Shown: positions 34,548 to 64,000 of the stretch, one piece after another
Position numbering within the stretch: the stretch's first letter is position 1
Layout of the letters: each line of letters starts with the position of its first letter
Source: Sphingopyxis sp.
Lineage (GTDB): Bacteria > Pseudomonadota > Alphaproteobacteria > Sphingomonadales > Sphingomonadaceae
Reading direction: 5' to 3'
Assembly (NCBI GenBank): GCA_040080745.1
Contig: JBEBHS010000001.1
Coordinates: forward strand, 69,469 to 133,468
Length of the DNA: 64,000 nt
Notes under the pieces: model-generated
What the model saw: the letters and a program-made list of their open reading frames with translations, nothing else
The model's database searches: none
What the model was told of the DNA's origin: nothing
Made by a program: the position numbers and the translations under genes

Positions 34548-34600
34548 TCGGGGGCCACAGACAAGGTCCCATTGATCGGGGGCCACTGATCGAGGCCCAC
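34544..34600. repeat. three copies of the 14-mer TGATCG(G/A)GG(G/C)CCAC between tpsB and tpsA
   Basis: tgatcgggggccac at 34544 and 34573, and tgatcgaggcccac at 34587, read directly. Confidence 0.8.
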
Positions 34601-34604
34601 CGAT

Positions 34605-41594: not shown

Positions 41595-41610
41595 GGCGGC
41601 GCAGACCACC

Positions 41611-41830: not shown

Positions 41831-41838
41831 CGTGGAAA

Positions 41839-41913
41839 TGGTGGGCGCGGCAGGGATTGAACCTGCGACCCCACCCGTGTGAAGGGTGTGCTCTACCACT
41901 GAGCTACGCGCCC
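41839..41913 (-). tRNA. tRNA-Val (anticodon CAC)
   Basis: 75 nt, folded by hand. Acceptor GGGCGCG/CGCGCCC, D-arm GCTC-AGTGGTA-GAGC, anticodon arm CACCC-TTCACAC-GGGTG, T-arm GCAGG-TTCAATC-CCTGC, encoded CCA. Confidence 0.93.
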
Positions 41914-41983
41914 GCCTGGGTGGCAGACAAGCCAAGCCATGACGTGACGAGCGCCCTAATCAACCCCGCCGTCTATGGCAAGC

Positions 41984-42014
41984 AAAAGGCAGGTCACTCC
42001 AAAGAGTGCCTGCC
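41984..42014 (-). terminator. probable Rho-independent terminator of hup
   Basis: On the minus strand: ggcaggcactc-tttg-gagtgacctgcc followed by ttttgcttg, about 50 nt after the hup stop. Confidence 0.6.
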
Positions 42015-48960: not shown

Positions 48961-50928
48961 TTAACTATTTAATTTTGCGATAATTTGCTTTGAAATCTTA
49001 TCCGCCGTCAGCCCAAAATGTTCGTAGAGGTCGCTTGCCGGAGCCGACGCGCCAAAGCGGTTGATGCCAAAATTGAGGCCGCTGCGCCCGGTATAACGCT
49101 CCCAGCCCATCGTCACCCCGGCCTCAACCGAGACAATCAGCGCATCGTGCGGTAATATGTCGGCGCGATAGGTGGCGTCTTGCGCATCGAACAGCGCGGT
49201 GCACACCATCGACACCACGTCCGCGCCAATACCCTGCCCCGCCAGAACGTCCGCAACATCGCATGCCAGACTGACCTCGGATCCGGTGGCGACCAGCACC
49301 ACGCGGCGCGCCGCAACCGCACCGCGCATGCGATAGCCACCGCGCGCCGACCTCATGGTGGCATCGCTCCGCAGCGCGGGCAAGGTCTGCCGCGACAGCG
49401 CGAGCAGCGACGGGCCATCGGCACGGTCCAGCGCCAGCGCCCAGCATTCGGCGGTTTCAATCGCGTCGCACGGGCGGAAAACATGCAGGTCCGGCATCAT
49501 CCGCAACGACATCAGATGTTCGATCGGCTGGTGCGTCGGCCCGTCCTCGCCAAGCCCGATGCTGTCATGCGTCATGACGTAAATGACCCGCGCGCGCTGG
49601 ATCGCGGACAGGCGGATGGCGTTGCGGCAATAGTCCGAAAACACCAGGAACGTTCCGCCATAAGGGATGATGCCGCCGTGCAGCGCCATGCCGTTCATCG
49701 CAGCGGCCATGCCAAATTCGCGGATGCCATAATAGATATAGCGCCCGCCGTAATTGCCCGCCGAAAGCGGCGCGGTCGATGGCGTTTTGGTGTTGTTCGA
49801 TCCGGTCAGATCGGCCGAGCCGCCGACCAGCTCTGGCAGCGCGGCGGTCAGCACCTCGAGCGCCATCTCGCTCGCCTTGCGGCTGGCGACCGTCGGCGGA
49901 TTCGCCACCAAACCCGTGATATAGTTTTGCAACACGTCCGCCGCAGCCATCCCGTCGCCACGCATCCGCTGGGCAAACTCCGCCGAGCGTGGGTGCGCGG
50001 CCAGCCGCTCCTCCCACGCCTTGCGCGCCGCAGCCCCGCGCGCTCCCGCTGCGCGCCATGCGTCCGCAATCGGCGCGGGGATGAAGAACGGCGGCGCATC
50101 CCAGCCCAGCCCTTCGCGCACCGCCGCCGCCTCAACCGCGCCCAGCGGCGATCCGTGCGTCGCCGATGTGCCCTGTTTGGTCGGTGCACCCTTGCCAATG
50201 ATGGTGCGGCACGCGATCAGCGACGGGCGGTCATCGGCCATCGCCGCCTCTATCGCACGCGCGATGTCATCCATATCGTGGCCATCGCAGCTTATCGTAT
50301 GCCAGCCGGTCGCGCGGAACCGCGCGGGAATATCCTCGCTGGTCGACAGCGACGTCGCGCCGTCGATGGTGATGCGATTATCGTCCCACAGCACGACCAT
50401 CCGCCCCAGTTTGAGGTGTCCGGCGAGGCCAATCGCCTCGTGGTTGACGCCCTCCATCAAACAGCCGTCGCCCGCGATCACCCAGGTGCGGTGATCGACC
50501 AACGCATCGCCAAACTCCGCATTCAAATGCCGTTCGGCGATAGCCATGCCGACCGCCATCGCCAGCCCCTGCCCCAAAGGCCCGGTGGTGCATTCGACGC
50601 CGTCAAGCTCGGTATTTTCGGGGTGGCCCGCGCACGGGCTGTGCAGTGCGCGAAAATGGCGGATGTCGTCGATCGTCGGGCGCGCATAGCCGCTGAGGTG
50701 GAGCAAGCCGTAGAGCAGCATCGAGCCGTGCCCGGCGGACAGGATAAAACGGTCGCGGTCCGCCCATTTCGGTGCGCTCGCGTCATATTTCAGATAGCGC
50801 GTGAACAGCGTGGTCGCCACATCCGCCATCCCCATCGGCATGCCCGGATGGCCGCTGTTGGCGGCCTCAACGGCGTCCATGGCCAAGATGCGCAAGGCAT
50901 TGGCGAGTGGGCGGGATTCAGCAGGCAT
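48961..50928 (-). CDS. tkt: transketolase
   Basis: 655-aa ORF with [17 protein letters not shown] and [16 protein letters not shown] motifs. Confidence 0.97.
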
Positions 50929-51070
50929 CCAGGCATTCTCCGCGAGAGGGGCAGGCAGGCGATTCGGATGCCGCTCCTTTGCGCAGGCGCGACCACCCGC
51001 GTCAACCGCATGCGCGCCATCAGAGCTTTCTGATTTGCGATTTGGTGAAAAATATGTCTAATATGCCCGC

Positions 51071-51259
51071 ATGGGGAATATCACGACGTCTCTGCAACGA
51101 TTGGACGCGGCTATCGACAGGCTGGACACTGCGGTAGCGGGCATCCCCGCCAGGGCGCGGCCAACATCGCCAGCGCCGGGTTCGCAAGACAAATTGCGTG
51201 CCGAAGTTGCGGCAACCATTGCCGAGCTCGACCAGTTGATCGGACAGCATCGTGGCTGA
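51071..51259 (+). CDS. small coiled-coil protein upstream of zapA (DUF4164-like)
   Basis: 62-aa ORF, helical at both ends, overlapping the zapA start. The call is by position; weak. Confidence 0.45.
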   Translation: MGNITTSLQRLDAAIDRLDTAVAGIPARARPTSPAPGSQDKLRAEVAATIAELDQLIGQHRG

Positions 51260-51572
51260 GGTGATGCTCCACATCGGTGGCTATAATTATCAGGTTGCGT
51301 GCGGCGATGACGAGCTTGATGCGCTTGGCCGATTGGGCAATATCGTCAACCAGCAGATTGAATCAGCGCGGTTGATGGCAGGCGGATTGACCGAAGAGCG
51401 GCAATTGCTGTTCGCCGCGATATTGCTCGCGGACAAATTGGAAACGGCGCAAAACGGCGCTGCCCCTACCCCATCCCCCGCCGACTATGCTGAGGCCGCG
51501 CATATTGCGACGATCGACCGACTGACCGAGCGGATTGTGGCGGTGGCAGAGCGTTTAGAAGCGATTTCTTGA
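51252..51572 (+). CDS. zapA: cell division protein ZapA
   Basis: 106-aa ORF. IGGYNYQVACGDDELDAL resembles the ZapA N-terminal pattern. The start may be the ATG at 51264. Confidence 0.75.
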   Translation: MAEVMLHIGGYNYQVACGDDELDALGRLGNIVNQQIESARLMAGGLTEERQLLFAAILLADKLETAQNGAAPTPSPADYAEAAHIATIDRLTERIVAVAERLEAIS

Positions 51573-51589
51573 GCTTTGGCCACTTGAGA

Positions 51590-51752
51590 ATTGAGGCTCA
51601 GCGCCCTATCTTCGCCCTGACGGGTGCTGCATGGTGCGAGGCTATACGAATATCCCTGAGGCGATAAAAACATCCAAGGGGGCTGTCTCTATCAGGGTCT
51701 TGACCCGAAATATATGGTTCCCACCTGACGTAAAAGGCGTCAGAGGATTTTC
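51590..51752 (+). ncRNA. ssrS: candidate 6S RNA (ssrS)
   Basis: A 209-nt non-coding gap between zapA and the 5-formyl-THF cyclo-ligase gene, the conserved ssrS position. Hairpins ccctga...tcaggg (51654-51697) and cctgacg-taaaagg-cgtcagagg followed by atttt (51724-51751). Ends are approximate. Confidence 0.45.
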
Positions 51753-51781
51753 ACAGTCAACGGCTTACGCGGTCCCGTCAC

Positions 51782-52351
51782 ATGGCACATATGACTAGTG
51801 ATTTATCTCATATAAAGAGCGCTTTGCGGGCAAAAGCTCGCAGCAAACGTGAGCATTTTGTGGCGGCGCAAATGGGTCAGAAATGGTCCCCGGCGCGCGC
51901 GCATTTTGATGATATTTTCACAACAGGCGCAACCATCGCCAGCTATCGCGCGGTGGCAAGCGAGGCTAACCCCGCCGCAATCGACCGCGCGGCCAGCGCC
52001 GCAAACATGCGCATCAGCTACCCCCGAATCGATGGCGATGGGGTCATGCGCTTCTATGGGCTGGGGCCGGGCGGTGCGATGGACAAAGGGTACTATGGCA
52101 TTGATGTTCCAGATAAAAATGGCTGGCTGGCGTGCCCATCTGTCGTTTTGATTCCGTTGCTGGCGTTTGACAGGCGCGGCACGCGGCTCGGGCAAGGCGG
52201 CGGATATTATGACCGCGCTTTGGCGTCGCTGCCCAATGCTACGCGCATTGGCATTGCCTGGTCAGTTCAGGAGATGGCAGAATTGCCCATCGACCCGTGG
52301 GATGTTCCGTTGCATTATATCGCCACCGAAAAGGAGTGGATTAGGGTATGA
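51782..52351 (+). CDS. 5-formyltetrahydrofolate cyclo-ligase
   Basis: 189-aa ORF with LIPLLAFDRRGTRLGQGGGYYDR, the family signature. Confidence 0.88.
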   Translation: MAHMTSDLSHIKSALRAKARSKREHFVAAQMGQKWSPARAHFDDIFTTGATIASYRAVASEANPAAIDRAASAANMRISYPRIDGDGVMRFYGLGPGGAMDKGYYGIDVPDKNGWLACPSVVLIPLLAFDRRGTRLGQGGGYYDRALASLPNATRIGIAWSVQEMAELPIDPWDVPLHYIATEKEWIRV

Positions 52352-52587
52352 ATGGCCATCAGCCATCGTGGCGCAAACCTGCGGGTATGCTGATCATTCT
52401 ATGCTTCATAGCGTTTTGGGCGTGGCTGGTGGCAACGCTCATGGCGATGCTGGGCCCCCTGCCCACGGCGGCGAACATTGCCATCTATGCGATCGCGGGA
52501 ACCATCTGGATCGCGCCGCTCGGGCCGTTGCTGCGCTGGATGGAAAGCGGGCGGATGCGACCGCCCGGCGGCCCGAACCATGAATAA
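52348..52587 (+). CDS. small two-helix membrane protein (DUF2842-like)
   Basis: 79-aa ORF with two hydrophobic helices. Its start overlaps the upstream stop, and its own stop abuts the 3' end of tRNA-Asp on the opposite strand with no spacer. Confidence 0.55.
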   Translation: MNGHQPSWRKPAGMLIILCFIAFWAWLVATLMAMLGPLPTAANIAIYAIAGTIWIAPLGPLLRWMESGRMRPPGGPNHE

Positions 52588-52664
<77 letters not shown>

Positions 52665-52742
52665 ATAGATGATTTCCCCTTCCCCTAACGGAGCCGCTAG
52701 CGGAATGTGGAGCAGGGCCGATATGGGCAAGCCTTGCGCAAG

Positions 52743-53870
52743 TCAACCTTGTGTTGCACTCGTGGCGGAATATTTCACATCATCGTGCTGATCATCTCCA
52801 TGATCGTGGCTGCGCACCGATTGAATGACGGTTTGAATGATGATGAGCAAGGGCACCGCCAAAAAGGCACCGGGTGCCCCCCATATCCAGCCCCACAGAC
52901 TGAGCGACACAAGGATCAGCAGCGGGTTGATGGTCAGCCTGCGCCCCAGGACCAATGGCGTAATGAAATTGGCTTCGACCAGATGCAGCGCGATTTGAAT
53001 CGATGCTGGAAGAAGCGCCAGCGCTACGCTGTCAAAGCTCATCAGCCCGCCCATCGCCAGCAATAGCGCGGCAATAATCGGCCCGACATAGGGCACGAAA
53101 TTGCACAGTGCGACGATGCCGCCCCACATCAACGGCGATGGCATCCCCAAAATCCACAGGAAAAATGCGACCGCCAGCCCCAGCATGACGTTGATGAAGA
53201 CGATGGTCGTCATATAGGCCGAGGTCGCTTCGACCACGCTGCGAATGGTCCGCGATGTCTGGAGCGCGCTGTCATAGCTGGTGCGGCTGCGGATGGTTGA
53301 TCGGCGCAGCCGCGTCCACCCCGACAGGAAGAAAAAGATGAACAATATGGCAAAAAAGGTCTGGATAGCCGCGGCGGGCGCGCTGCCCGTCAGATAACCG
53401 AGCACAGAACGCGGCGTTTCAATGGCCACGGCCTGCGCCTGTGCGGCGGTATTGGTCGCAAAACCCTGAAGCGCGTCATCGACAAACCGCTGGAGCGAGG
53501 CGTAAAAATCGATCAGCGGGGCGAGATTTTCGCGGATACGCGGCAATCGTTCGGGCAGGCGGATGAACCAGTCGCTCGCGGGAAAGACGATCAGCGCCAG
53601 CGCGCCGTTGATCAACAGGACAAAGCCGATCACGCACAAAAGCGCGGCGAAAATCGACGGTAATCCGCGCCGTTCCAGCCATTCAAGCGCCGGGACCAAT
53701 ATGATAGCGATGACCAGTGCGGCGGTCAGCGGCAGGAAGAACTCGGCCCCGGCAATCAACGCGAACGGCATGCCCATGACGAGCGCGGTGAGCAAGATGT
53801 AAACGATCAGGCGCAACGGATCGCTGCCGAAAACGGGGCGAAATGGCTGGGGAGGCGGGTCGCTATCCAT
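52743..53870 (-). CDS. AI-2E family (PerM-like) transporter
   Basis: Polytopic membrane protein with CNFVPYVGPII, typical of the family. Start taken at the internal Met (MDSDPPP). Confidence 0.8.
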   Translation of the reverse strand: MDSDPPPQPFRPVFGSDPLRLIVYILLTALVMGMPFALIAGAEFFLPLTAALVIAIILVPALEWLERRGLPSIFAALLCVIGFVLLINGALALIVFPASDWFIRLPERLPRIRENLAPLIDFYASLQRFVDDALQGFATNTAAQAQAVAIETPRSVLGYLTGSAPAAAIQTFFAILFIFFFLSGWTRLRRSTIRSRTSYDSALQTSRTIRSVVEATSAYMTTIVFINVMLGLAVAFFLWILGMPSPLMWGGIVALCNFVPYVGPIIAALLLAMGGLMSFDSVALALLPASIQIALHLVEANFITPLVLGRRLTINPLLILVSLSLWGWIWGAPGAFLAVPLLIIIQTVIQSVRSHDHGDDQHDDVKYSATSATQG

Positions 53871-54036
53871 CCTGCGCTTATGGCAGGCGAAAATCACCGC
53901 GTCACTAGGGCAGTGGACAAAGTCGATGCCGACGCGGGTCGGTTTGACGTCACGACTGCGCAAAATTGGCCGCTTTAACGGTTTCTTTGCCATTTTCCGT
54001 CACAAGGACCGGGTAATTTTAGTGGCAAGGATCCCA

Positions 54037-55044
54037 ATGTCCAACGCAACGGCATATCCGCGCCTTGGCGCGCAACAATTTTATATCTACAGATCAGCCG
54101 TTTGTGCTGGATTGGCGCTGTTGGTTCCGCACACGGCCATGGCCGCGGGAACGCGCGCGGGCACGCTGATCGACAATGTCGCGTCCGCCACTTACGACCC
54201 GGGCAGCGGTCCGGTGACCGTCAATTCCAACACCCACAGCCTGAAAGTCGATGAGTTGATCGACACGACGGTGGCGTGGAGCGACAGCGCCGATGTGGTG
54301 ACAACGCCGGGCGCGACGTCGCAGGTGTTGAAATATCAGGTCACCAACACCGGCAACGGCGTCGAAACATTCGGCCTGTCGACCGTCGCCAATATCGGCG
54401 GCGATCAATATGACCCGACCGTCACCTCGATCGTGATCGACGATGGCGACGGCGTTTACGAACCGGGCATCGACACCGTCTATGTCGCGGGTGCGGGCGA
54501 TCTGGTGCTCAATCCGGACCAAAGCATCACCGTCTTTGTGGTTTCAACAACGCCTGGCAGCGTGGTTGATGGCGATCGCGGCGGCGTGCGGCTTGTTTCG
54601 ACCTCGAAAACCGGCATCGGAGCGCCCGGAACCAGCTTTGCCGGTGCGGGTGAAGGCGGCGGCAATGCCGTGCTTGGCATCACCGGCGGTGACGGCGAGA
54701 ATGACGGATTCTATCTCGTTTCCTCAGCCACGGTCGTGCTCAACAAATCGGCCAAAGTCATCGACCCGTTTGGCGGAACAACATCGGTTCCAGGGTCGCG
54801 CATCACCTACACCATTGTCGCGACAACGACCGGAACGGGCAGTCTGCCCGGCCTCGGCATCAGCGACGCGGTGCCAGCAGGGACGACCTATGTCCCCGGC
54901 TCGATCACGCTGGGCGGAACCGCGCAAAGCGATGTCGCAGACGCTGATGCGGGCAGTTTTGCCAGCAATATCGTTGCGGTCGCGCTCGGCACCGTTGCCG
55001 GCGGGCAGACCCGCACCGTCACCTTTCAAGTCACGATTAATTGA
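54037..55044 (+). CDS. secreted DUF11 / conserved-repeat-domain protein A
   Basis: Start at MSNATAY. Leader ends LLVPHTAMA. C-terminal DUF11-like module VPGSRITYTIVATTTGTGSLPGLGISDAVPAGTTYVPGSITLGG...RTVTFQVTIN. Paralogous to protein C. Confidence 0.75.
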   Translation: MSNATAYPRLGAQQFYIYRSAVCAGLALLVPHTAMAAGTRAGTLIDNVASATYDPGSGPVTVNSNTHSLKVDELIDTTVAWSDSADVVTTPGATSQVLKYQVTNTGNGVETFGLSTVANIGGDQYDPTVTSIVIDDGDGVYEPGIDTVYVAGAGDLVLNPDQSITVFVVSTTPGSVVDGDRGGVRLVSTSKTGIGAPGTSFAGAGEGGGNAVLGITGGDGENDGFYLVSSATVVLNKSAKVIDPFGGTTSVPGSRITYTIVATTTGTGSLPGLGISDAVPAGTTYVPGSITLGGTAQSDVADADAGSFASNIVAVALGTVAGGQTRTVTFQVTIN

Positions 55045-55055
55045 GGAACATCAAG

Positions 55056-55529
55056 ATGATCCGTAAGCTTGCCCCCCTATTTGCCGCGCTGATGATCGCC
55101 AGCCCTGCCTTGGCGCAAAACGCCAATGCCGTTTCACTGAGCAGTGATGTCATGGTCGAACGGACCGTGACCGGTACCGATGGCCGTTCATCGGTGACGC
55201 TCGAGGAACCGCGCGTTGTGGTTCCGGGCGACCATCTGGTGTTCGTGCTGCGCTATCGCAATAATGGCGCGCAGCCAGCCGGCGCGTTCGTCGTGACCAA
55301 CCCCCTGCCCGCAGCCGTCGCTTTCCAAGGCACCGCTGACGCATCGGCCAGTGTTTCGGTCGATGGCGGGCGCAATTGGGGCGCGCTCAGCACTCTTGAA
55401 ATCAGCAATGCGGACGGAACCAAACGCCCGGCGCGCAGCGAAGATGTCACGCACATCCGCTGGGCATTCGCTGAAGCCATTCCGGCGGGTCAAGCCGGTC
55501 GATTGATGTTCCGTGGCATCGTTCGATAA
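55056..55529 (+). CDS. small secreted single-DUF11-domain protein B
   Basis: ATG at 55056 preceded by gagga. Leader MIRKLAPLFAALMIASPALA. VPGDHLVFVLRYRNNGAQPAGAFVVTNPLPAAVAF matches the DUF11 pattern. Confidence 0.75.
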   Translation: MIRKLAPLFAALMIASPALAQNANAVSLSSDVMVERTVTGTDGRSSVTLEEPRVVVPGDHLVFVLRYRNNGAQPAGAFVVTNPLPAAVAFQGTADASASVSVDGGRNWGALSTLEISNADGTKRPARSEDVTHIRWAFAEAIPAGQAGRLMFRGIVR

Positions 55530-55600
55530 CCTCCCTCGCGGAAACCGCATCGTTGCCAGCGGACTTCGGCAACAAACACAACGCCCTAAGGAGCACAGCA

Positions 55601-56659
55601 ATGACCAGTAAGCTGTATCATCTTGGGTCTTGCAGCGTCGTTGCGCTCGCCATTGTCGGTTCTGTACCGGCGATGGCTGGCGGCACGTTGGCCGGATCCA
55701 CCATAACCAATAACGCATCGGTGACCTATCAGGTCGGCGGTGTGGCGCAAACTCCGCCTCCGCCCGCAGTCAATGTGTTCACGGTTGACCGCAAGGTCAA
55801 TCTGACCGTGGCCGAAAGCGGCGCGGCGACCACCACTGTTGTCCCCGGCCAAAGCGGCGCTGTGACGACATTCACCTTGCAGAACACATCGAACGCGGTG
55901 CTCGATTTTGCCTTGTCAGCGACACAATCGGCTGGCGGCGTATCGGCACACGGCGGCACCGACAGTTTCGACGTGACCGGCGTTGCCATCTATCGCGATG
56001 CCAATGCCAACGGCACCTATGAAGCCGGCACCGACGTGCTTGTGACTTATATCGACGAGCTTGGCATCGACGCGAGCGTTACCCTGTTTGTCGTCGCCAA
56101 CGTGCCAGCCAGTCTGGCAACAGGCGCAGTTGCCGAAGTCAATCTAGTGGCCACGGGTCGCGAAGGCGGCGCCGCCGGTTCGCAAGGCGCAGCGCTGACC
56201 GAAACCGCTGGTGCCAACACCGCCGGTATGGACACGGTGTTTGCCGATGCGGCGGGCGTAACTGACGCGGCGCGCGATGCTTCGCACAGCGACGATGACG
56301 ATTACACCGTCGCCACCGCGACATTGACGCTGTCGAAAACCGCAACCGTCATCAGCGATCCGGTCAATGGCACTACCAACCCGAAAATGATTCCGGGTGC
56401 GGTGGTCGAATATTGCATCGCGGTTGCCAATGCGGCGGGCGGTGCTTCGGCAACGTCGGTGGCGGTCAGCGACGTTCTGCCTGGTCAAGTCACGTTCAAC
56501 GCCGGTTCGATCCTGCTCAACGGCACGGTCACGGGCGTTACCTGTAACGCCGATGGCGTTGCTGGCGGCGCGTTCGGTGCCGGAACGGTCACGGGCACCA
56601 TCGCCACGATAACGGCGGGCGACACACGCACGCTCGTTTTCCGCGCGACTGTGAACTGA
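55601..56659 (+). CDS. secreted DUF11 / conserved-repeat-domain protein C
   Basis: ATG at 55601 preceded by aaggag. Leader ends GSVPAMA. C-terminal module IPGAVVEYCIAVANAAGGASATSVAVSDVLPGQVTFNAGSILLNG...RTLVFRATVN. Confidence 0.75.
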   Translation: MTSKLYHLGSCSVVALAIVGSVPAMAGGTLAGSTITNNASVTYQVGGVAQTPPPPAVNVFTVDRKVNLTVAESGAATTTVVPGQSGAVTTFTLQNTSNAVLDFALSATQSAGGVSAHGGTDSFDVTGVAIYRDANANGTYEAGTDVLVTYIDELGIDASVTLFVVANVPASLATGAVAEVNLVATGREGGAAGSQGAALTETAGANTAGMDTVFADAAGVTDAARDASHSDDDDYTVATATLTLSKTATVISDPVNGTTNPKMIPGAVVEYCIAVANAAGGASATSVAVSDVLPGQVTFNAGSILLNGTVTGVTCNADGVAGGAFGAGTVTGTIATITAGDTRTLVFRATVN

Positions 56660-56667
56660 TTGAGGCT

Positions 56668-56710
56668 GCGATGGGCGGCGTGTCGTTTCTATGCGGCCGC
56701 CGCCCATCGC
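56668..56710 (+). terminator. strong hairpin (13-bp GC-rich stem) just after the protein C gene; possible intra-operon attenuator
   Basis: gcgatgggcggcg-(17 nt)-cgccgcccatcgc, starting 9 nt after the stop at 56659. No clear U-tract follows. Confidence 0.45.
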
Positions 56711-56735
56711 GCTTTCGCAAGTATTTGCGTTAACC

Positions 56736-59700
56736 ATGTTCACCTGGAACAAAACCCTGATTTCCATCGCAGCCAGCGCTGTTGCGGCCTTTGTGCCCAG
56801 CAGCGCGGTGGCGCGTATAATCAGCAATGTGGCGCAGGCGAATTGGGATAGTGTGTCGGGGCAACGCTCCGTCCGTTCAAATCAGGTCGATATCGCCGTT
56901 GATAGCGTTCCGACGCCCATCCAGACGATGATTTACGCCATAAATCCGCCGGGCTCCGGCCAACAAAGCCAGATTAACAGCAGCGGATGCCATGGATCAG
57001 GACAAGGCAGCGCCGGCGTGTTTGAACCACCGCCGACAAGCTCTGGCGGAGCCGTTTCGCTCACCCCTGCGAATGAGTTTGCCGCCGGACAACCGGTGGC
57101 TTTTGGTATTACGTCGGCCGCCGATAATCTGAGCGCGACCACCCGCGACACGATCGAGGTCACCATCCGCACCGCATTGGGCGATGAAGAACAGCTAACC
57201 CTGACCGAAGATGCTGAAAATAGCGGGTTTTTTGTCGGGTATTTGCCAACGGTGCGGATGCCGCCGGCCTTGGTGCAGCGCGATTGCCGATTATCGGTTG
57301 CGCCGGGCAGCCCGGTCCGCCTCTCGCTCTATCGCCAGGGGGCGCCAGACCCGCTCGCCAGCGCCACGGTCAGTTTCCTCGTCGATCCGTTCGGTATCGT
57401 GTTTGATAGCGGCGACGGCGCGCCGGTCGCGGGCGCGCGCGTGACGCTCATCAACGATGCGACGGGCCAACCCGCGCAGGTTTTTGGCGATGATGGGGTG
57501 TCCTCCTATCCCAGCACCATCGTTACCGGCTCGACCGTCACCGATTCTGGGGGGCAAAGCTATGTTTTCCCCGCAGGGGACTATCGTTTTCCGTTTGTCG
57601 CACCTGGCACCTATCGCTTGGTGGTGCAGCCACCCGATCCCTATAGCTGGCCATCCACCGCGAGCATCACCGATCTGGCCGCGTTTCGCAGGCCCGACAA
57701 TGGTGCACCCTATACGCTCGGCACGTTCAGCTATGGCGCAGCGTTTCAGCTGTTTACGCCAGCTCCGGTGCGCGTCGACATCCCCATTGACCGCCCCAAC
57801 GCGGCGCTGAGTGTTATCAAGAGCGCCAGCACGGCAGAGGCGGTGCCGGGCCAAGCGGTGCAATACCGCATCGAGATCCGCAACGGCGACGCACGGAGGA
57901 CGACGGGCGCGATCACGCTGACCGACGACCTGCCGCATGTTGTTCATTTACGCATAAATACAATACGTTATAATGGAAACCTCATAACTCCTATCATTGC
58001 GCCGGATGGCCGCCGCTTTACCGTCACCCTGCCAGCGCTCGCGCCTGCGACCAGCGGTATTTTGACCTATCTAGCCGACATTCGCCCCGATTCAGCACCT
58101 GGAGACGCCATAAATCTGGCGGTTGCCCGCGATAATCGCGGCTCGGTGTCAAACACCGGCGAGGCCAATATCCGCATCCACCGCGATACATTGGGCGACC
58201 GGATGACCATCATCGGCCGCCTGACCAATGGCGGCTGCGCAGCCAATCCCGACACCGCCAACGGCATCGGTGGTGTGCGCGTGATGATGCAGGACGGCAG
58301 CTTTGCGATCACCGACAGCGACGGGCGCTACCATTTCGAGGGGGTTCGCCCCGGCACGCATGTGGTGCAGATCGACCCGTCATCGCTCCCCCCCGCACAT
58401 GTTGCGCTCGATTGCGCACGCAATTCGCGCAGTGCCGACAGCGCGATTTCACGCTTTGTCGATGGCAGGGGCGGCGAGCTGCGCCGCGCCGATTTCCACG
58501 CCGCGCCGGTCACGTCGGAAGAAGTGCCCGCCGACGCCGCGCCCGAAACCATCGCGCGCACCGCCGCGCCTGCCCACCCAGCCGTGGCCGAAGATGTCGC
58601 GGCTTCGGGCGGCTCGACAGACTTTTTCGCCGGACAAAGCGCTGGTATCGACTGGCTGTTCCCTGCCCCAGAGCATAACCCGCGCAACCCATCGACCCGC
58701 ATCGCGATCAAGTTGCTCGCCGGACAATCGGTGCAGCTCAGCCTCGATGGCAATCCAGTCAATCCGCTCAATTTTGACGGGTCGGAAACCTCCGCCGATG
58801 GCACATTCAAAATCAGTGTGTGGCGCGGGGTCGAACTGCACGAAGGCGACAACCGCTTTACCGCGCAGGTGACCAACGCCGATGGCAGCGTTGCCGCAAC
58901 GCTGGACCGCACCGTCCACCTTTCGGGTGGGCCGCTGTCGGTAACGATGGTGCCGAGCCTGTCGCTACCCATAGCCGATGGCCTCAACCGCCCGGTGATC
59001 GCGGTGCGCTTGACCGACCGCAATGGTCACCCGATCCGTCAGGGTGTGGTTGGTGATTTTGCGGTCGAACCGCCGCACCGTGCTGCGCTCGACATTGATA
59101 CCGAACAGGATCGACAATTGTCGGGGCTTGACCGTGGCCGCACCACCTGGCGGGTCGAGGGCGACGACGGCATCGCTTATATCGAGCTGCAACCGACTAC
59201 CGCATCGGGCACCGCACGGCTGAGCTTCACCTTTCGCGACGATGAAGTGGTGCGCAACCAGCAGCTTGACGTCTGGCTCAACCCCGGGAACCGCCCGTGG
59301 ACCGTGGTTGGCTTTGCCGCTGGAACGGTGGGATACAACACGCTCGATGATCGGATGGAACCGGTGGCTGAAACGCTGGACAGCGAAAATGTCGACGGCC
59401 GCATCGCGCTTTATGCCAAGGGGCGGATCAGCGGCCAGTGGCTGATGACGCTGGCCTATGACAGCGACCATGAGGAGGATGAGGCACGCTTTGGCGGGGT
59501 GATCGACCCGCGCGCTTACTACACCATCTATGCCGACCGCGCCGACCATGGTTTTGATGCCGCATCGGTGCGCGGCCTCTATCTGCGACTCGAACGCCCG
59601 CAATTTTACGCGCTGTTCGGTGATTTCGAGACCGGTATCAACGAGCCCGAACTGGCGCGCTATCAACGTGCGATGAACGGGGCCAAAGCCGAATATCGCG

Positions 59701-61817
59701 GGCCACAGCTCGCCGCGACCGCCTTTGTCGCCGACACCCCCTATCGCCACCGTCGCGACGAATTGCAGGGCAATGGCCTCAGCGGCCCTTACCAGCTTGG
59801 CGCGCGCGATGTACTGGCCAACAGCGAGCGGATCATCATCGAGACACGCGACCGGCTGCGCTCGGACATCGTCGTGCGCAGCGTCACCTTGGCGCGCCAC
59901 ATCGATTACGACATCGACTATTTTGCCGGAACGCTACGCTTTCGCGAGCCTATCTTGAGCCGCGACCTGGGGCAGAACCCGCAATTCATCATCGCCGATT
60001 ACGAGGTTGCGGGCGTTGGCCAGCGCGTGCTCAACGCGGGTGGGCACGCCAGCTGGACCAGCACGGATGGCGCGCTGCGGATCGGCGGCACCTTCATCCA
60101 CGACGAAAGCGACGTCGCCCGCACCAATTTGGGCGGGGTTGACGTGCGTTTACGCCCCGATGCCAGCACCGAAATACGCGCCGAGTTTGCGATGAGCGAC
60201 ACCAGCGGCGCCAGCGTAAGCGGTGACGGCCGCGCGCACGGCTGGCTGATCGAGGCCGAACATCATGGCCGCACCTTTGACCTGCTCGCTTATGCCCGCG
60301 AACGTCAGGCCGGCTTTGGCGTCGGGCAACTCTCTGCTGCCGGTGAATCGAGCCGCCGCGTCGGCTTTGACGGCAAAGTGCGCGTGTCGCAAAGCGTTTC
60401 GCTGCTCGCCTCGGCATGGCAGGAGGACTATCTGAGCCGCAATGCCCGCCGCCGCGCCGCGCGGATGCTGGGCGAATGGCAGTCGCAGAACACGACGCTG
60501 CGCGCTGGCTTCACCTATGCCGATGATCATCTGTCCACGGGACAGCGCAACCGTTCGACCATCGCGCAATTGGGCGGCACCCAGCGGCTGTTCAATCAGC
60601 GGCTGGAACTGAGTGCGCAGACCGAGTTCGCGCTTGGCGGTCACAATGACAGCGTCGATTTTCCCGCGCGGCACAGCGTCGGCGCGCGGTTCAACGTGTC
60701 GCCCACGCTGGCGTTGGTTGGCAATTACGAGGTCGCTAGCGGCGGCACCATCGATGCCCGCACGCTGCGGGTCGGCTTTGATGTCCAGCCGTGGGAGGGC
60801 GCGCGCGCCAACCTGTCCGGTGCCAACCAAAATCTCGGCGAATATGGTCCGCGCAGCTTTGCCGCTTATGGCCTCACCCAATCGCTGGTGGTCAATGAGC
60901 GTGTGACGGTCGATGTGACACTCGACGGACAGCGCACGCTTGGCGGTATCAGCCTCAGCGACGTGCTCGACCCCGCGCACCCGCTGGCATCGGGCGGGTT
61001 CCTCGATGGCAGCGGCAGCATAACCGAAGATTTCATGGCGATGACGGCGGGCGCGACATACCGCACCGAGGATTGGAGCATCGCGCTGCGCGGTGAATAT
61101 CGTGACGGTGAAATCGTCAACCGCAGCGGCTTCACGCTCGGCGCTATTCGCCGGATTGGCGATGGACGCGCCTTTGGCGGCCTGTTCAGCTGGACCCGCG
61201 CAACCAGCAGCATCGCCGCGTCAACCGAAACGATGGCGGCCGAGCTGAGCTGGGCGCACCGCCCATCGGACAGCCGCTGGAGCGTGCTCGACAAGCTCGA
61301 GTTCCGGCTCGATGACGTGCGCGGCGCGGTTGCTGGCCTGCCTGGCCCGATCGGCGGCCCGGCGCTCACCGTGTCGGGCGATGTGCGTTCGCGCCGGGTG
61401 GTCAACAGCCTGGCGGTCAATTTCACCCCGCTGCGCCATCGTGGCGGCCTGTGGCGCGAAGCGGGCGAAGTCAGCCTGTTCTGGGGCGTTCGCTATGCCA
61501 GTGACCGCTTTGGCGTCGATGATGTCGCGGGCTGGTCAACCGTGATCGGCGCTGATTTTCGCTTTGATTTGCGCGAGATGGTGGCGCTCGGCGTTTCCGC
61601 CAATGCGCGGGTCGGCACGGGTGCGCGCACCACCGCGTGGAGCGTCGGCCCGCAAATCACCCTCACCCCGATGGCCAATGCCAACATCATCATTGGGTAT
61701 AACGTCCACGGCTTTAGCGACCGCGATTTCGAGGAAAACCGCTATAGCCGCCGCGGCGTCTATGCGACGTTCCGGCTCAAGTTCGACCAGACCAGCCTCA
61801 GCCGATTGGGGCTGTGA
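56736..61817 (+). CDS. giant multidomain outer-membrane protein (Ig-like/DUF11/CarboxypepD_reg-like N-terminal half, beta-barrel-like C-terminal half)
   Basis: About 1694 aa from MFTWNKTLISIAASAVAAFVPSSAVA; the ORF opens at 56691. DUF11 module VPGQAVQYRIEIRNGD...LTDDLP. SdrD-B/CarboxypepD_reg-like modules (DGRYHFEGVRPGTHVV, GDYRFPFVAPGTYRLVV). The last roughly 900 aa show amphipathic beta-strand periodicity. Confidence 0.7.
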   Translation: MFTWNKTLISIAASAVAAFVPSSAVARIISNVAQANWDSVSGQRSVRSNQVDIAVDSVPTPIQTMIYAINPPGSGQQSQINSSGCHGSGQGSAGVFEPPPTSSGGAVSLTPANEFAAGQPVAFGITSAADNLSATTRDTIEVTIRTALGDEEQLTLTEDAENSGFFVGYLPTVRMPPALVQRDCRLSVAPGSPVRLSLYRQGAPDPLASATVSFLVDPFGIVFDSGDGAPVAGARVTLINDATGQPAQVFGDDGVSSYPSTIVTGSTVTDSGGQSYVFPAGDYRFPFVAPGTYRLVVQPPDPYSWPSTASITDLAAFRRPDNGAPYTLGTFSYGAAFQLFTPAPVRVDIPIDRPNAALSVIKSASTAEAVPGQAVQYRIEIRNGDARRTTGAITLTDDLPHVVHLRINTIRYNGNLITPIIAPDGRRFTVTLPALAPATSGILTYLADIRPDSAPGDAINLAVARDNRGSVSNTGEANIRIHRDTLGDRMTIIGRLTNGGCAANPDTANGIGGVRVMMQDGSFAITDSDGRYHFEGVRPGTHVVQIDPSSLPPAHVALDCARNSRSADSAISRFVDGRGGELRRADFHAAPVTSEEVPADAAPETIARTAAPAHPAVAEDVAASGGSTDFFAGQSAGIDWLFPAPEHNPRNPSTRIAIKLLAGQSVQLSLDGNPVNPLNFDGSETSADGTFKISVWRGVELHEGDNRFTAQVTNADGSVAATLDRTVHLSGGPLSVTMVPSLSLPIADGLNRPVIAVRLTDRNGHPIRQGVVGDFAVEPPHRAALDIDTEQDRQLSGLDRGRTTWRVEGDDGIAYIELQPTTASGTARLSFTFRDDEVVRNQQLDVWLNPGNRPWTVVGFAAGTVGYNTLDDRMEPVAETLDSENVDGRIALYAKGRISGQWLMTLAYDSDHEEDEARFGGVIDPRAYYTIYADRADHGFDAASVRGLYLRLERPQFYALFGDFETGINEPELARYQRAMNGAKAEYRGPQLAATAFVADTPYRHRRDELQGNGLSGPYQLGARDVLANSERIIIETRDRLRSDIVVRSVTLARHIDYDIDYFAGTLRFREPILSRDLGQNPQFIIADYEVAGVGQRVLNAGGHASWTSTDGALRIGGTFIHDESDVARTNLGGVDVRLRPDASTEIRAEFAMSDTSGASVSGDGRAHGWLIEAEHHGRTFDLLAYARERQAGFGVGQLSAAGESSRRVGFDGKVRVSQSVSLLASAWQEDYLSRNARRRAARMLGEWQSQNTTLRAGFTYADDHLSTGQRNRSTIAQLGGTQRLFNQRLELSAQTEFALGGHNDSVDFPARHSVGARFNVSPTLALVGNYEVASGGTIDARTLRVGFDVQPWEGARANLSGANQNLGEYGPRSFAAYGLTQSLVVNERVTVDVTLDGQRTLGGISLSDVLDPAHPLASGGFLDGSGSITEDFMAMTAGATYRTEDWSIALRGEYRDGEIVNRSGFTLGAIRRIGDGRAFGGLFSWTRATSSIAASTETMAAELSWAHRPSDSRWSVLDKLEFRLDDVRGAVAGLPGPIGGPALTVSGDVRSRRVVNSLAVNFTPLRHRGGLWREAGEVSLFWGVRYASDRFGVDDVAGWSTVIGADFRFDLREMVALGVSANARVGTGARTTAWSVGPQITLTPMANANIIIGYNVHGFSDRDFEENRYSRRGVYATFRLKFDQTSLSRLGL

Positions 61818-61837: not shown

Positions 61838-63109
61838 TTAATCCGCGAACAGCAGCACCGGAGTTTCAAGCAATTTTTTGAGCGCCTGAACAAAACAGGC
61901 AGCATCATAGCCATCGACGACGCGGTGATCGCAGCTGATCGACAGGTTCATCAGCTTGGCACGGGCAATGATTTCGGCACCGCTGGCATCGCGCGCGAAT
62001 ACGGGCCGCTCGACGATCCTGTTCGGGCCGATGATCGCCACTTCGGGGCGGTTGATGACCGGCGTGGTGGCAATGCCGCCGAGTGGACCGAGCGATGTGA
62101 CCGTCAGGGTCGAGCCGCTCAATTCCTCGCTCTTTGCAGAACCATTGCGAGAATTATCCGCCAATCTACTGATTTCATTAGCAAGTTGCCATATGTTCAG
62201 GCTTTGCGCATCGCGGATGACCGGAACCATCAGTCCGGCATCGCTCTGCGTCGCCATCCCCATGTGCACCGCCCCGTGCCGCGTCACCACCCCCGCCTCG
62301 TCGTCATAGCGCGCGTTGATCATCGGGAACGCGGGCACCGTGCGGCAAATCGCGGCGATCAGCAGCGGCAACATCGTCAGCTTGGGCTTGTTCCCGCGAT
62401 GGGCATTGAGGTCGGCGCGCATCGCTTCCAATGCGGTGACGTCGATCTCCTCGACATAGGTGAAATGCGGGATGGCGCGTTTTGACGCTGCCATATTTTC
62501 GGCGATGCGGCGGCGCATACCGATAACCCTAACCTGCTCGTCGGGGCGGGTCGTCGCGGGTACAGCGTAGCCCGCGCCGCTGTTATAGCGCAGATAGGCA
62601 TCAAGGTCGGCGTGGCGGACGCGGCCGTCGGCCGAAGGCTTCACCGCACACAAATCGATGCCGAGGTCGCTGGCCCGCGCCCGCACCGCCGGGGACGCGA
62701 GGGCCGCCATTTTCTCCCTCGCCCCTTCAGGGGAGAGGGTCGGGGAGAGGGGAGTATCAGCAGTTGCGCCCCCCTCTCCCAACCCTCTCCCCTGAAGGGG
62801 AGAGGGCTTTTCCGTAACCTCGGCCAGTATCGATTCTACGCTCGCCTCACCGCTCTCCTCCTCCTCAGCATCGGTCTCAATCACCATCAGCGCGGAACCG
62901 ATAGCAATCACATCGCCCTCACCGCCGCCAATTTCGACGACCACACCCGATACCGGCGATTCCATTTCAACCGTCGCCTTGTCGGTCATCATGTCGGCTA
63001 TTTGCTGATCCTCCTCGACCCTGTCCCCCACCGCAACGTGCAGCGCGACAATCTCTGCCTCGGCGATGCCTTCGCCAATATCGGGCAAGCGGAATGTGAA
63101 GCGCGCCAT
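61838..63109 (-). CDS. bkdB: branched-chain alpha-keto acid dehydrogenase E2 (lipoamide acyltransferase)
   Basis: Start at MARFTFRLPDIGEGIAEAEI. Lipoyl-Lys motif MTDKATVEMESP and catalytic DHRVVDG near the C-terminus. Confidence 0.92.
   Translation of the reverse strand: MARFTFRLPDIGEGIAEAEIVALHVAVGDRVEEDQQIADMMTDKATVEMESPVSGVVVEIGGGEGDVIAIGSALMVIETDAEEEESGEASVESILAEVTEKPSPLQGRGLGEGGATADTPLSPTLSPEGAREKMAALASPAVRARASDLGIDLCAVKPSADGRVRHADLDAYLRYNSGAGYAVPATTRPDEQVRVIGMRRRIAENMAASKRAIPHFTYVEEIDVTALEAMRADLNAHRGNKPKLTMLPLLIAAICRTVPAFPMINARYDDEAGVVTRHGAVHMGMATQSDAGLMVPVIRDAQSLNIWQLANEISRLADNSRNGSAKSEELSGSTLTVTSLGPLGGIATTPVINRPEVAIIGPNRIVERPVFARDASGAEIIARAKLMNLSISCDHRVVDGYDAACFVQALKKLLETPVLLFAD
62716..62806. 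repeat. compound palindromic repeat element inside the bkdB linker
   Basis: Arms ccctcgccccttcaggggagagggtcggggagagggg (62716-62752) and cccctctcccaaccctctcccctgaaggggagaggg (62771-62806) are about 34/37 complementary. Each arm also contains its own ccctc.cccc-ttca-ggggagaggg hairpin. Confidence 0.8.
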
Positions 63110-63114
63110 GATCG

Positions 63115-64000
63115 TTAGTCCTTCAACAATTTCTCTATCGCCGTGGCGATGCGGACAGGCCCCGGAAAATACGCCCATTCGAGGCTGTGTGGATAGGGGG
63201 TATCAAAACCGGTCACGCGCTCTATCGGCGCTTCGAGCTGGTAAAAACAGCGTTCCTGGACCTGCGCCGACAGTTCGGCACCGAACCCCGATGTCTTTGT
63301 GGCTTCGTGGACGATCAGGCAGCGGCCGGTCTTTTTCACCGAGCCCTCAATAGTTGCAATGTCGAGCGGAACCAGCGTGCGCAGGTCGATAATCTCGGCG
63401 TCAACGCCCATTTCCGCGACCATCACCTCCACCACATGGACCATCGTGCCATAAGCGAGGATGGTCATCGCCTCGCCCGCGCGGGCAATCCGCGCCTGGC
63501 CTAGCGCGATGCGATAATAGCCTTCGGGAACTTCGCTGCCGGCATGCTTGGCCCACGGTTCGACCGGGCGGTCATAATAGCCCGAAAACGGCCCGTTATA
63601 GATGCGTTTGGGTTCAAAGAAGATCGTCGGGTCATTATCCTCTATCGCCGCGATCAGCAGCCCCTTGGCGTCATAGGGCGTCGCGGGAATGACGGTTCTA
63701 ACCCCCGACACATGGGTGAAAATCCCCTCTGGCGACTGGCTGTGCGTCTGTCCGCCAAATATGCCGCCGCCAAACGGTGAGCGCACCGTCATCGGCGCAA
63801 TGAAATCGCACGCCGAGCGATAGCGCAGCCGCGCCGCCTCGCTCACCAATTGATCGAGCGCGGGGTAAATATAATCAGCGAATTGGATTTCGGGAACGGG
63901 GCGCAGGCCATAGGCCCCCATCCCCACCGCAACACCAATGATCCCGCATTCGGTGATCGGCGTGTCAAACACTCGCGTCTTGCCGTGCCTGGCCTGCAAA
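63115..64000 (-). CDS. bkdA2: branched-chain alpha-keto acid dehydrogenase E1 beta subunit (5' end outside the window)
   Basis: 294 aa visible, with VFDTPITECGIIG and transketolase-C-like regions. It lies directly upstream of bkdB. Truncated by the window edge. Confidence 0.9.
   Translation of the reverse strand, partial: LQARHGKTRVFDTPITECGIIGVAVGMGAYGLRPVPEIQFADYIYPALDQLVSEAARLRYRSACDFIAPMTVRSPFGGGIFGGQTHSQSPEGIFTHVSGVRTVIPATPYDAKGLLIAAIEDNDPTIFFEPKRIYNGPFSGYYDRPVEPWAKHAGSEVPEGYYRIALGQARIARAGEAMTILAYGTMVHVVEVMVAEMGVDAEIIDLRTLVPLDIATIEGSVKKTGRCLIVHEATKTSGFGAELSAQVQERCFYQLEAPIERVTGFDTPYPHSLEWAYFPGPVRIATAIEKLLKD

Follow-up and report, generated by a model that had tools for sequence, protein, structure and literature searches.

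A conserved four-gene cassette of Sphingopyxis with CLIPPER domains apparently split between polypeptides: a candidate donor-hairpin route to a surface stalk or pilus

A stretch of 64,000 nucleotides from a Sphingopyxis sp. genome (contig JBEBHS010000001.1; hereafter the window) carries a cassette of four genes, here called A, B, C and D, the products of which share an immunoglobulin (Ig)-like domain family known as DUF11 and now named CLIPPER. As judged from sequence profiles, A, B and C each finish in a CLIPPER domain that has only the first seven of its nine strands, and the missing two-strand hairpin is the mature N-terminus of A, C and D, directly after the signal-peptidase site. One principle explains all these termini, namely that of a fibrillar-adhesin stalk cut in its strand 7-8 loops. 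The reading towards which we lean, with somewhat more confidence than doubt, is that of a chaperone-free stalk or pilus formed by donor-hairpin complementation of the split CLIPPER domain, probably covalent, and rooted in the giant protein D. A wider claim, which we put forward tentatively and with the balance tilted a little against it, is that of a new and widespread pilus class in double-membraned bacteria, in which hairpin donation free of chaperone and sortase, sealed by intermolecular Lys-Asn bonds, would yield a covalent chain with exchangeable acceptor-only adhesins at its tip, exported through and covalently rooted in a barrel of about 36 strands, acting as usher, terminator, anchor and peptidoglycan tether. 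The suggestion made in a preliminary description of this DNA, that a DUF11-based surface polymer is built here by a different route, is supported by the computational analysis; both the surface location and the polymerisation are what we infer from it.

The cassette and its split CLIPPER domains

The four genes are the following.

54037-55044, forward strand: gene A, open reading frame of 335 amino acids (aa); putative two-domain shaft subunit with both donor hairpin and acceptor domain
55056-55529, forward strand: gene B, open reading frame of 157 aa; acceptor-only, with a single truncated CLIPPER-like domain
55601-56659, forward strand: gene C, open reading frame of 352 aa; paralog of A, with both donor and acceptor
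56691-61817, forward strand: gene D, longest open reading frame of 1708 aa; donor-only giant

The intergenic gaps A-B, B-C and C-D measure 11, 71 and 31 nucleotides (nt), and on both flanks lie genes of the opposite strand, for an AI-2E-family transporter upstream and a 2-oxoacid dehydrogenase E2 downstream. Each of the four proteins starts with a typical Sec signal for signal peptidase I (SPI; h-region plus AxA), and the co-directional, tightly spaced genes with signal peptides that had been reported were thus all found in place. Cleavage, as read from the sequence, is predicted after A36 in A (...TAMA/AGT, the slash marking the cut), A20 in B (...PALA/QNA), A26 in C (...PAMA/GGT) and A41 in D (...SAVA/RII), and the mature N-terminus A37-G38-T39 is invariant among the A family. 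For D, comparison of orthologues favours a start at M16 (MFTWNK..., nt 56736), 15 codons inside the longest open reading frame; residue numbers of D are counted here from the 56691 start. The GC content of the cassette is that of its flanks, and the closest relatives of its proteins are those of Sphingopyxis.

The family PF01345 (DUF11), now CLIPPER, has a nine-stranded CnaA-like Ig fold (PMC12617251; crystal structure 9IFR) with an intramolecular, Asp-catalysed Lys-Asn isopeptide bond, the residues of which are K715, D748 and N806 in 9IFR (PMC12617251). Matches to DUF11 or TIGR01451 (Pfam, NCBIfam) occur in all four proteins, as had been claimed, those of B and D being borderline: by TIGR01451, A (34.6 bits) and C (27.3 bits) exceed the cut-off of 24 and B and D fall slightly under it, and the scores against the family are 21.9-26 bits for B and 22.8 bits for D. 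The relation of A and C as paralogs is borne out by 34% identity over the full length (E=3e-31). A has 1436 homologues at E<=1e-3, and C shows in addition a weak match to TIGR04226, a model for the isopeptide domain of pilins (RrgB). The parts of A, B and C and the donor hairpin of D are listed next.

54037-54144, forward strand: signal peptide of A (aa 1-36, ...HTAMA/AGT, read from sequence)
54145-54252, forward strand: donor hairpin of A (aa 37-72, AGTRAGTLIDNVASATYDPGSGPVTVNSNTHSLKVD), CLIPPER strands 8-9; Asn47 at nt 54175-54177
54253-54720, forward strand: middle Ig-like domain of A (aa 73-228) with an acidic DGDG loop, from AlphaFold2 (AF2) secondary structure
54721-55041, forward strand: acceptor domain of A (aa 229-335); Lys237 at nt 54745-54747, Asp277 at nt 54865-54867
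Parts of B, forward strand: signal peptide aa 1-20; DUF11 profile positions 12-65; no donor hairpin
Parts of C, forward strand: signal peptide aa 1-26; donor hairpin aa 27-63 (nt 55679-55789, Asn37)
56312-56656, forward strand: acceptor domain of C (aa 238-352); Lys246, Asp291
56814-56924, forward strand: donor hairpin of D (aa 42-78, RIISNVAQANWDSVSGQRSVRSNQVDIAVD...), right behind the signal peptide; Asn46

The truncation is apparent in the coverage of the Pfam DUF11 profile, of whose 114 positions A matches 11-84, C 9-84 and B 12-65, and likewise in the AF2 model of A (predicted local distance difference test, pLDDT, 88.8; predicted template modelling score, pTM, 0.71), where the acceptor domain has seven strands as against nine in the CLIPPER crystal structure. 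The mature N-termini, AGTRAGTLIDNVASATYD... in A, GGTLAGSTITNNASVTYQ... in C and RIISNVAQANWD... in D, resemble CLIPPER strand 8, 'G-t-l-x-N-t-A-t-v', together with strand 9, and the two hairpin strands of A (44-53 and 60-70) are modelled with a pLDDT of 92-94. When the A, C or D hairpin is joined to the truncated domains, the Pfam match runs on to positions 97-102 with a higher score; the isolated acceptor domains of A and C score 27.8 and 25.5 bits (cut-off 24.6), as against 29-31 bits with a hairpin appended. Similarly, in hhalign comparisons with the intact CLIPPER domain of 80 giants, that is, of D and its relatives, the alignment passes gapless across the junction (...VTIN/AAGTRAGTLIDNVA to ...ADIRPDSAPGDAINLA). 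The A acceptor scores 75.2 with its hairpin, 63.9 without it and 63.8 with a control peptide, and all six A/C acceptor-hairpin combinations exceed every control window (20 for A, 23 for C). The alignment of B becomes full-length only with a hairpin appended, when it reaches template column 123, and the hairpins of D and A are homologous (hhalign probability 94%). The incomplete Ig folds anticipated for A and C are thus found at the level of sequence profiles, at which their C-terminal domains are not self-sufficient.

The hairpin is also the best-conserved part of A and C, with G38, T39, A41, G42, I45, N47 and A49 invariant even across the two paralogs. An I-x-N-x-A motif directly behind the signal peptide recurs in giants from other phyla, and the donor motif is present in 0/74 B orthologues. 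At their other ends A closes with ...TVTFQVTIN, C with ...TLVFRATVN and B with ...RLMFRGIVR, each then followed by the stop codon; the T-[IV]-N-stop ending earlier ascribed to A and C holds for the window and gives way across the family to x-[IV]-[N/D]. The last residue (codons 55039-55041 and 56654-56656) is nearly invariably Asn or Asp, D in 47 and N in 22 of 72 A sequences, N in 63 and D in 11 of 88 C sequences; intact CLIPPER domains have no conserved residue at the matching position. In the middle domain of A, residues D123, D135, G139, D146 and D161 are invariant, and a Foldseek search with the A model matched only generic tandem-Ig arrays (integrin legs, SafDAA, PrgB).

Could these be unrelated neighbours, D a stand-alone giant porin or S-layer-type protein and A, B and C ordinary DUF11 surface proteins with another export route, the N-terminal motif being merely the first strand of the first domain? 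'NtAtv'-like strands are indeed common and of low complexity in DUF11, the gains in hidden Markov model (HMM) scores are small, and one giant has no adjacent subunit genes. The control windows, however, always score below the hairpins, the motif stands exactly at the signal-peptidase site in three protein types, the structural truncation point is the same in A, B, C and the accessory proteins discussed below, and the gene order is strictly co-conserved across several phyla, so that we hold such a chance association to be very improbable.

The isopeptide triad

The residues of the isopeptide triad, whose Lys belongs to strand 1 and whose Asn belongs to strand 8 of the CLIPPER domain, were counted in 72-88 orthologues per protein type, drawn from 84 loci. 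In A and C the triad is divided, with Lys and Asp in the acceptor domain and Asn in the N-terminal hairpin: in A the hairpin N47 is kept in 70/72 sequences and the acceptor residues K237 and D277 in 72/72 each, and in C the hairpin N37 is kept in 78, the acceptor K246 in 84 and D291 in 83 of 88. D, which has no incomplete domain of its own, retains the hairpin N46 in 76/81 and W52 in 74/81. It also contains an intact internal CLIPPER domain, whose K377, D412 and N475 are each conserved in 76/81, with Lys-Asp and Lys-Asn spacings of +35 and +98 that agree with the +33 and +91 of the crystal structure; N47 of A is aligned with N475 of D by hhalign. B is without the reactive Lys and Asp, since E35/R36 occupy the Lys position and N82 the Asp position.

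Acceptor-only proteins and completion in cis or in trans

Other genomes encode, directly 3' of the giant, accessory proteins that have a signal peptide, no donor motif and a C-terminal truncated CLIPPER domain. The C-terminus is cut at the same site as in the subunits (...F-x-x-x-V/I-K/N-stop) and most retain Lys and Asp; the N-terminal parts are variable and include SpaA_4, beta-helix, CLIPPER and SdrD_B modules. The window has no such gene. The examples, with positions within their loci, are as follows.

L085, 12159-16268: accessory protein of 1369 aa with SpaA_4, from a Moraxellaceae metagenome-assembled genome
L088, 16240-23328 (true start upstream, about 16100): accessory protein of about 2400 aa with beta-helix, CLIPPER and SdrD_B
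L051, 11655-13367: accessory protein of the 345-590 aa class, Allosphingosinicella/Sphingomonas group
L052, 11655-12695 and 12790-14556: two accessory proteins of the same class and group
L058, 11673-12710: accessory protein of the same class and group
L059, 11673-13385: accessory protein of the same class and group
L076, 10287-11939: accessory protein of the same class and group

The larger acceptor-only proteins have the VTHIR...F-R-x-x-V-K-stop ending of B in common. The L085 protein was missed by an HMM of sphingomonad B orthologues, and a more diverse B HMM matched it weakly; the relationship of B to the accessory proteins is drawn from the collinear alignment and the shared termini. By analogy, the accessory proteins are candidates for exchangeable tip adhesins, the counterpart of FimH or PapG.

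These proteins cannot complete themselves because they have no donor hairpin. Since D is donor-only, B acceptor-only and further acceptor-only proteins exist in other genomes, completion in trans is favoured, and we infer from this distribution of halves that a hairpin completes the domain of its neighbour. The alternative of a circular permutation supposes that the hairpins of A and C fold into their own C-terminal domains, so that both would be compact secreted or periplasmic proteins with an intramolecular isopeptide bond, and D an independent adhesin-porin pairing at most with B. Such a permutation would have had to arise independently in A and in C, with orphan halves left in B and D, and it explains neither the donor-only D, whose conserved Asn46 would find no Lys partner in B, nor the acceptor-only accessory proteins with Lys and Asp and no hairpin. 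On its side stand the AF2 model of monomeric A, which is confident throughout, hairpin included, the compatibility in sequence of hairpin and acceptor within one chain and the self-complementation of monomeric type 1 pilins, as one account of them has it (PMC6615685). We consider the permutation unlikely, and retain donation in trans for what follows.

The giant protein D

In order, D comprises the donor hairpin, a stalk, two Ig-like domains and a predicted giant barrel.

56925-58379, forward strand: stalk, beginning with a domain of aa 79-230 (no family assigned), then CarboxypepD_reg, aa 235-314
Stalk, continued, forward strand: intact CLIPPER, aa 373-480, and SdrD_B-like, aa 522-563 (Pfam)
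58494-58640, forward strand: Pro/Ala-rich linker, aa 602-650 (sequence)
58650-59285, forward strand: two Ig-like (Big-like) domains, aa 654-753 and 769-865 (AF2 pLDDT 85-94)
59298-59567, forward strand: conserved segment, aa 870-959, WTVVGFAAGTVGYNT..., with many invariant columns (pLDDT 28-50)
59577-61778, forward strand: predicted beta-barrel region, aa 963-1696, about 34-38 long strands (AF2 DSSP)
59769-59954, forward strand: small beta-rich insert, aa 1027-1088, candidate plug or gate (four short AF2 strands, model residues 408-445)

Pfam matches (CarboxypepD_reg 47.7 bits, over the cut-off; SdrD_B-like 27.4 bits, cut-off 29.7) together with the Ig-like domains of the AF2 model agree with the stacking of DUF11, Ig-like and CarboxypepD_reg/SdrD-B-like modules first noticed in D, and all the peptides then quoted are present in it. 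The pre-barrel Ig-like region has a profile match to the Ig domain of a glycoside hydrolase. The model of D 640-1708 (pLDDT 75, pTM 0.69) was obtained from an alignment of 44 sequences of 34-89% identity and its number of barrel strands is an estimate from AF2 secondary structure; the final conserved strand, YATFRLKF, is followed by a DQ motif. The long amphipathic C-terminal region recognised earlier is modelled as a giant barrel and extends over about 740 residues. The compact insert that was said to follow the first strands is found as four short strands at D 1027-1088, after the first 5-7 long ones, and is among the best-conserved stretches of the protein. Another is D 870-959, which ranks among the best-conserved stretches across the giants, Gly, Asp, Tyr and Trp being invariant there at many positions; this segment may depend for its folding on a partner, either a subunit or the lumen.

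We attach moderate confidence to the giant barrel as a modelled structure. In Foldseek comparison with the PDB it matched giant outer-membrane barrels, SlpA (E=5e-8), MtrB, SprA, LptD and TonB-dependent receptors, so that the predicted C-terminal barrel of the preliminary description now has a model that resembles only very large outer-membrane barrels; no usher stood among the best 50 matches. Pfam and NCBIfam gave no match to D 600-1708, including usher PF00577, and Pfam none to the type V secretion barrels (PF03797/PF11924/PF03865). Nothing relevant came from PDB sequence and profile searches in which the queries were D, A, the reconstituted A domain, the CLIPPER domain of D and the barrel profile, nor was 9IFR matched. 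D is in these searches without a characterised-family match, and the earlier remark that the sequences are unlike pilins, PapD-like chaperones and ushers agrees with the lack of detected homology to these or to autotransporters.

Across phyla the giants share a common order of hairpin, unassigned domain, CarboxypepD_reg, intact CLIPPER, CarboxypepD_reg/SdrD_B, OmpA (PF00691), two Ig-like domains and barrel. Most of those outside Sphingomonadales have, between stalk and pre-barrel Ig domains, an OmpA domain that binds peptidoglycan, for example at about aa 730-890 in P0460, P0420, P0480 and P0398, in the place of which sphingomonad D has the Pro/Ala-rich linker. OmpA domains bind periplasmic peptidoglycan, and the pre-barrel part of D is therefore probably periplasmic.

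This bears on the possibility of a periplasmic envelope tether, in which the whole N-terminal part of D, extended by A, B and C, would stay in the periplasm and link the outer membrane to peptidoglycan or deeper layers in the manner of SlpA. The best structural match is in fact SlpA, whose 30-strand barrel is joined to an N-terminal part that binds peptidoglycan in the periplasm, most giants have OmpA N-terminal to the barrel, and residues preceding the first barrel strand are by the general topology of outer-membrane proteins periplasmic by default. Against these points, the stalk of D together with A, C and B would measure some 50 nm (an estimate at about 4 nm per domain), which is more than the periplasm accommodates end-on, and a barrel of about 36 strands is far bigger than anchoring requires. 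Moreover, surface adhesins typically contain CLIPPER, SdrD_B, cadherin-like and beta-helix modules, the cadherin-like and beta-helix ones being present in giants and accessory proteins from other genomes, and sphingomonad D has lost the OmpA domain. We judge a purely periplasmic role to be unlikely.

Conservation of the cassette

The barrel module, always C-terminal in proteins of 1000-3000 aa, occurs in 2768 representative clusters at E<=1e-3 and in 1093 at E<=1e-30 (clustering at 50% identity), and the full-length D query retrieved 819 homologues. Motifs of the D insert, used as search patterns, recovered at least 591 loci in GTDB species-representative genomes. The sources include Sphingomonadales, Woeseiaceae, Steroidobacteraceae, Luteimonas/Novilysobacter and Moraxellaceae, and further Desulfobacteraceae, Nitrospirota and Eisenbacteria; Lysobacterales are also among the carriers. 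The A-B-C-D order is present in 58 of the 82 Sphingomonadales loci examined, the remainder being mostly contigs too short for the cassette or loci with extra C-like genes. One Woeseiaceae and one Moraxellaceae genome have the identical four-gene layout with the terminal motifs shared, and on a Nitrospirota contig (L003) an A/C-like gene truncated by the contig end precedes B, C and the giant, again with the same terminal motifs. The cassette is accordingly co-conserved as a unit in Sphingomonadales and, beyond them, in Gammaproteobacteria and Nitrospirota. In the neighbourhoods examined, no gene for a chaperone, ATPase, sortase, protease or other outer-membrane or assembly component is conserved beside it.

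In Sphingopyxis alaskensis (L001) the cassette has the same chromosomal context as in the window. The order shared upstream (48961-53993) is transketolase, zapA, 5-formyltetrahydrofolate cyclo-ligase and AI-2E transporter, and downstream (61838-64000) branched-chain 2-oxoacid dehydrogenase E2/E1; the cassette is therefore vertically inherited at a stable locus and not a mobile island. Genes for GGDEF proteins (diguanylate cyclases) adjoin the cassette in two distant lineages (L003 9435-10727, L088 6780-8012), which hints at cyclic di-GMP (c-di-GMP) or biofilm-linked control.

Proposed assembly

In the assembly that we propose, cleavage by signal peptidase after Sec export would expose the hairpins. 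An acceptor-only tip, B or a large adhesin, would be completed by the hairpin of an A or C unit, further A/C units would join likewise, and the order along the chain would be tip, one or more A/C units and then D, the A/C units forming either an open-ended polymer or a defined short stack. Each A/C junction would be locked by a spontaneous Lys-Asn isopeptide bond, with the junction to B non-covalent, and the result would be a continuous stalk, similar to that of a fibrillar adhesin, with nicks. D, as donor only, would terminate the chain and fix it to the outer membrane, in most lineages also to peptidoglycan, the pre-barrel Ig-like domains (plus OmpA in most relatives) lying in the periplasm and tying the base to peptidoglycan. 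The barrel, roughly 36-stranded and bearing the insert, is the only candidate conduit for folded subunits, usher-like in role, and probably passes them because it is the sole outer-membrane component of the cassette. The cassette encodes no chaperone, ATPase, sortase or protease; folding and bond formation would supply the energy of assembly. In this scheme B is a candidate tip cap; a role for B as a periplasmic chaperone reversibly capping donor hairpins is taken to be less likely, the larger acceptor-only adhesin-like proteins that share its domain type favouring the tip. It is also conceivable, by analogy with archaeal threads, that the final Asn/Asp of A and C, which would adjoin the free alpha-amine of the donor, provides a second bond sealing the nick.

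Several observations weigh against this assembly. Adding the hairpins raises the scores by a modest amount, 4-11 units in hhalign and 1-6 bits in Pfam. In the AF2 monomer of A the hairpin is positioned confidently, a result compatible with self-complementation, and in a mean-field direct-coupling analysis of 281 A/C sequences (effective number, Meff, 136) the hairpin-acceptor contacts were at the level of noise, although the internal pairing of the hairpin was recovered. B, being without isopeptide chemistry, would leave at least one junction non-covalent, and the gene order A-B-C-D differs from the proposed order of assembly. In one complete genome (L086, CP070719.1) a giant with a donor hairpin (6001-11820) has no adjacent A, B or C. 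The TM-scores of the barrel to known barrels do not exceed 0.26 and confidence in its model is moderate. Finally, the presence of OmpA between the stalk and the barrel of most relatives points by default to a periplasmic N-terminal part, and surface exposure requires the chain to cross its own barrel; the stalk of D might either thread its own barrel outwards or remain on the inner side and hold the last subunit from beneath.

Relation to known systems

The cassette resembles chaperone-usher pili (FimA/FimH/FimC/FimD) in its incomplete Ig-like subunits, which would here too be made whole by an extension at the N-terminus of the next subunit, in an acceptor-only tip (in some genomes two-part tip adhesins) and a donor-only base terminator, in a large outer-membrane barrel with an internal insert encoded in the operon and in the ATP-free assembly proposed. 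It differs in having no homology to PapD-like chaperones or to ushers (Pfam, PDB sequence searches, best 50 Foldseek matches), and no Pfam match to the chaperone (PF00345/PF02753) was found in A-D or in the flanking genes of L001, L003, L004, L085 and L088. It also donates two strands instead of one, its fold is CLIPPER/CnaA-like with an isopeptide triad, and its barrel, of about 34-38 strands where an usher has 24, is part of one chain with the basal subunit and stalk.

SpyTag/SpyCatcher is an engineered split of the CnaB2 domain of Streptococcus pyogenes FbaB, with a single strand and a Lys-Asp bond. The likeness lies in a strand with a reactive residue that docks into a truncated Ig-like domain carrying Lys and a catalytic acid, with spontaneous isopeptide formation; unlike that man-made pair, the cassette would be natural and CnaA-like, with a two-strand hairpin and a Lys-Asn bond serving polymerisation. 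The sortase pili of the SpaA/RrgB type likewise have covalent, isopeptide-linked shafts of CnaA/CnaB-type domains, but the cassette has neither LPXTG nor sortase gene nor pilin-motif lysine, and linkage would be autocatalytic within the reconstituted domain. Specifically, A, B and C have no LPXTG sorting signal or hydrophobic tail, and no sortase gene was seen in the neighbourhoods examined. The lipobox Cys of the type V pili of Bacteroidota (FimA/Mfa1), which rely on lipoprotein signals and on strand exchange mediated by a protease, was equally missing in the four proteins, whose signals are of SPI type (AxA) with no Cys at +1 and which have no FimA/Mfa Pfam match.

With the CLIPPER stalks of fibrillar adhesins (PMC12617251; 9IFR) the cassette shares family, triad and spacing, and D has one intact copy; in those stalks the bonds are intramolecular within one long polypeptide, whereas here domain and triad would span two polypeptides. 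The CLIPPER paper contains no split domains, subunit cassettes or the barrel (PMC12617251). The Acinetobacter adhesin of the crystal structure is at most a possible family member, the paper giving only a C-terminal OmpA-like anchor and no barrel (PMC12617251). Donor-strand complementation combined with sortase-independent intermolecular isopeptide bonds is described for the archaeal thread Saci_0406, where the bond joins the alpha-amine to Asn between subunits n and n+2 (PMC9715654), and for Clostridium perfringens BsaA (10.1101/2024.11.04.621531). Those systems differ from the cassette in their type-1-pilin-like or TasA-like folds, in bond chemistry and positions, and in having no outer membrane and no dedicated barrel; neither has components in common with the cassette.

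Deinococcus SlpA, the best structural match, is alike in combining a peptidoglycan-binding N-terminal part, represented by OmpA in the relatives of D, with a very large barrel; D has no counterpart of the SLH domain or coiled coil of that trimeric protein, the structural match is weak (TM 0.2), and the OmpA of its relatives is absent from the D of the window. SlpA, SprA, LptD and MtrB all lack sequence similarity to D, have other accessory domains and are without associated subunit genes. In comparison with type V secretion (12-16 strands; autotransporters, intimin/invasin and two-partner systems) the barrel of D is two to three times larger, and the passenger-then-barrel layout is only superficially alike. 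A literature search, the topics of which included DUF11, CLIPPER, TIGR01451 and intermolecular isopeptide bonds with donor strands, found no description of the cassette; papers on haloarchaeal tafi, F-ENA and the Litorilinea 'grappling hook' mention DUF11 or DUF1102, concern different systems and were set aside.

Other features of the locus

A terminator-like hairpin at 56665-56679, between the C stop codon and D, could reduce the expression of D relative to the subunits; a promoter and terminator scan gave a result not above shuffled expectation. No further family members were found elsewhere in the window. The giant of L086 has as neighbours the type IV pilus genes pilC, pilS and pilR on the opposite strand. 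Upstream of the cassette, a tRNA-Asp (GTC) gene lies at 52588-52664 on the reverse strand, between the 5-formyltetrahydrofolate cyclo-ligase/DUF2842 genes and that for the AI-2E transporter. Nothing reached the Rfam threshold for a 6S RNA between zapA and the cyclo-ligase gene; in E. coli, ssrS sits between zapA and ygfA. The GC content of window positions 30001-42000 is 0.65-0.66 compared with 0.57-0.63 in the remainder.

Implications

In the reading proposed here, the cassette follows the logic of a donor-strand pilus built from non-homologous parts. If the proposed assembly is true, it would provide the first natural split isopeptide domain and the first covalent sortase-independent pilus in a diderm, and would bear on what the CLIPPER paper asks about the use of isopeptide chemistry beyond Gram-positive bacteria. 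The barrel of D, which has no family annotation, would in number of strands stand beside SprA as one of the largest outer-membrane barrels made of a single chain, and new orthogonal Tag/Catcher pairs, combining the hairpins of A, C and D with the acceptors of A, C and the accessory proteins, could be mined from the sequences. If confirmed, the cassette would add a further Gram-negative surface-fibre route to those of chaperone-usher, type IV, curli and type V pili, one in which assembly would need no more than Sec, the general machinery for barrel insertion and four proteins that assemble themselves, in carriers that include the environmentally dominant Sphingomonadales, Woeseiaceae, Lysobacterales and Nitrospirota.

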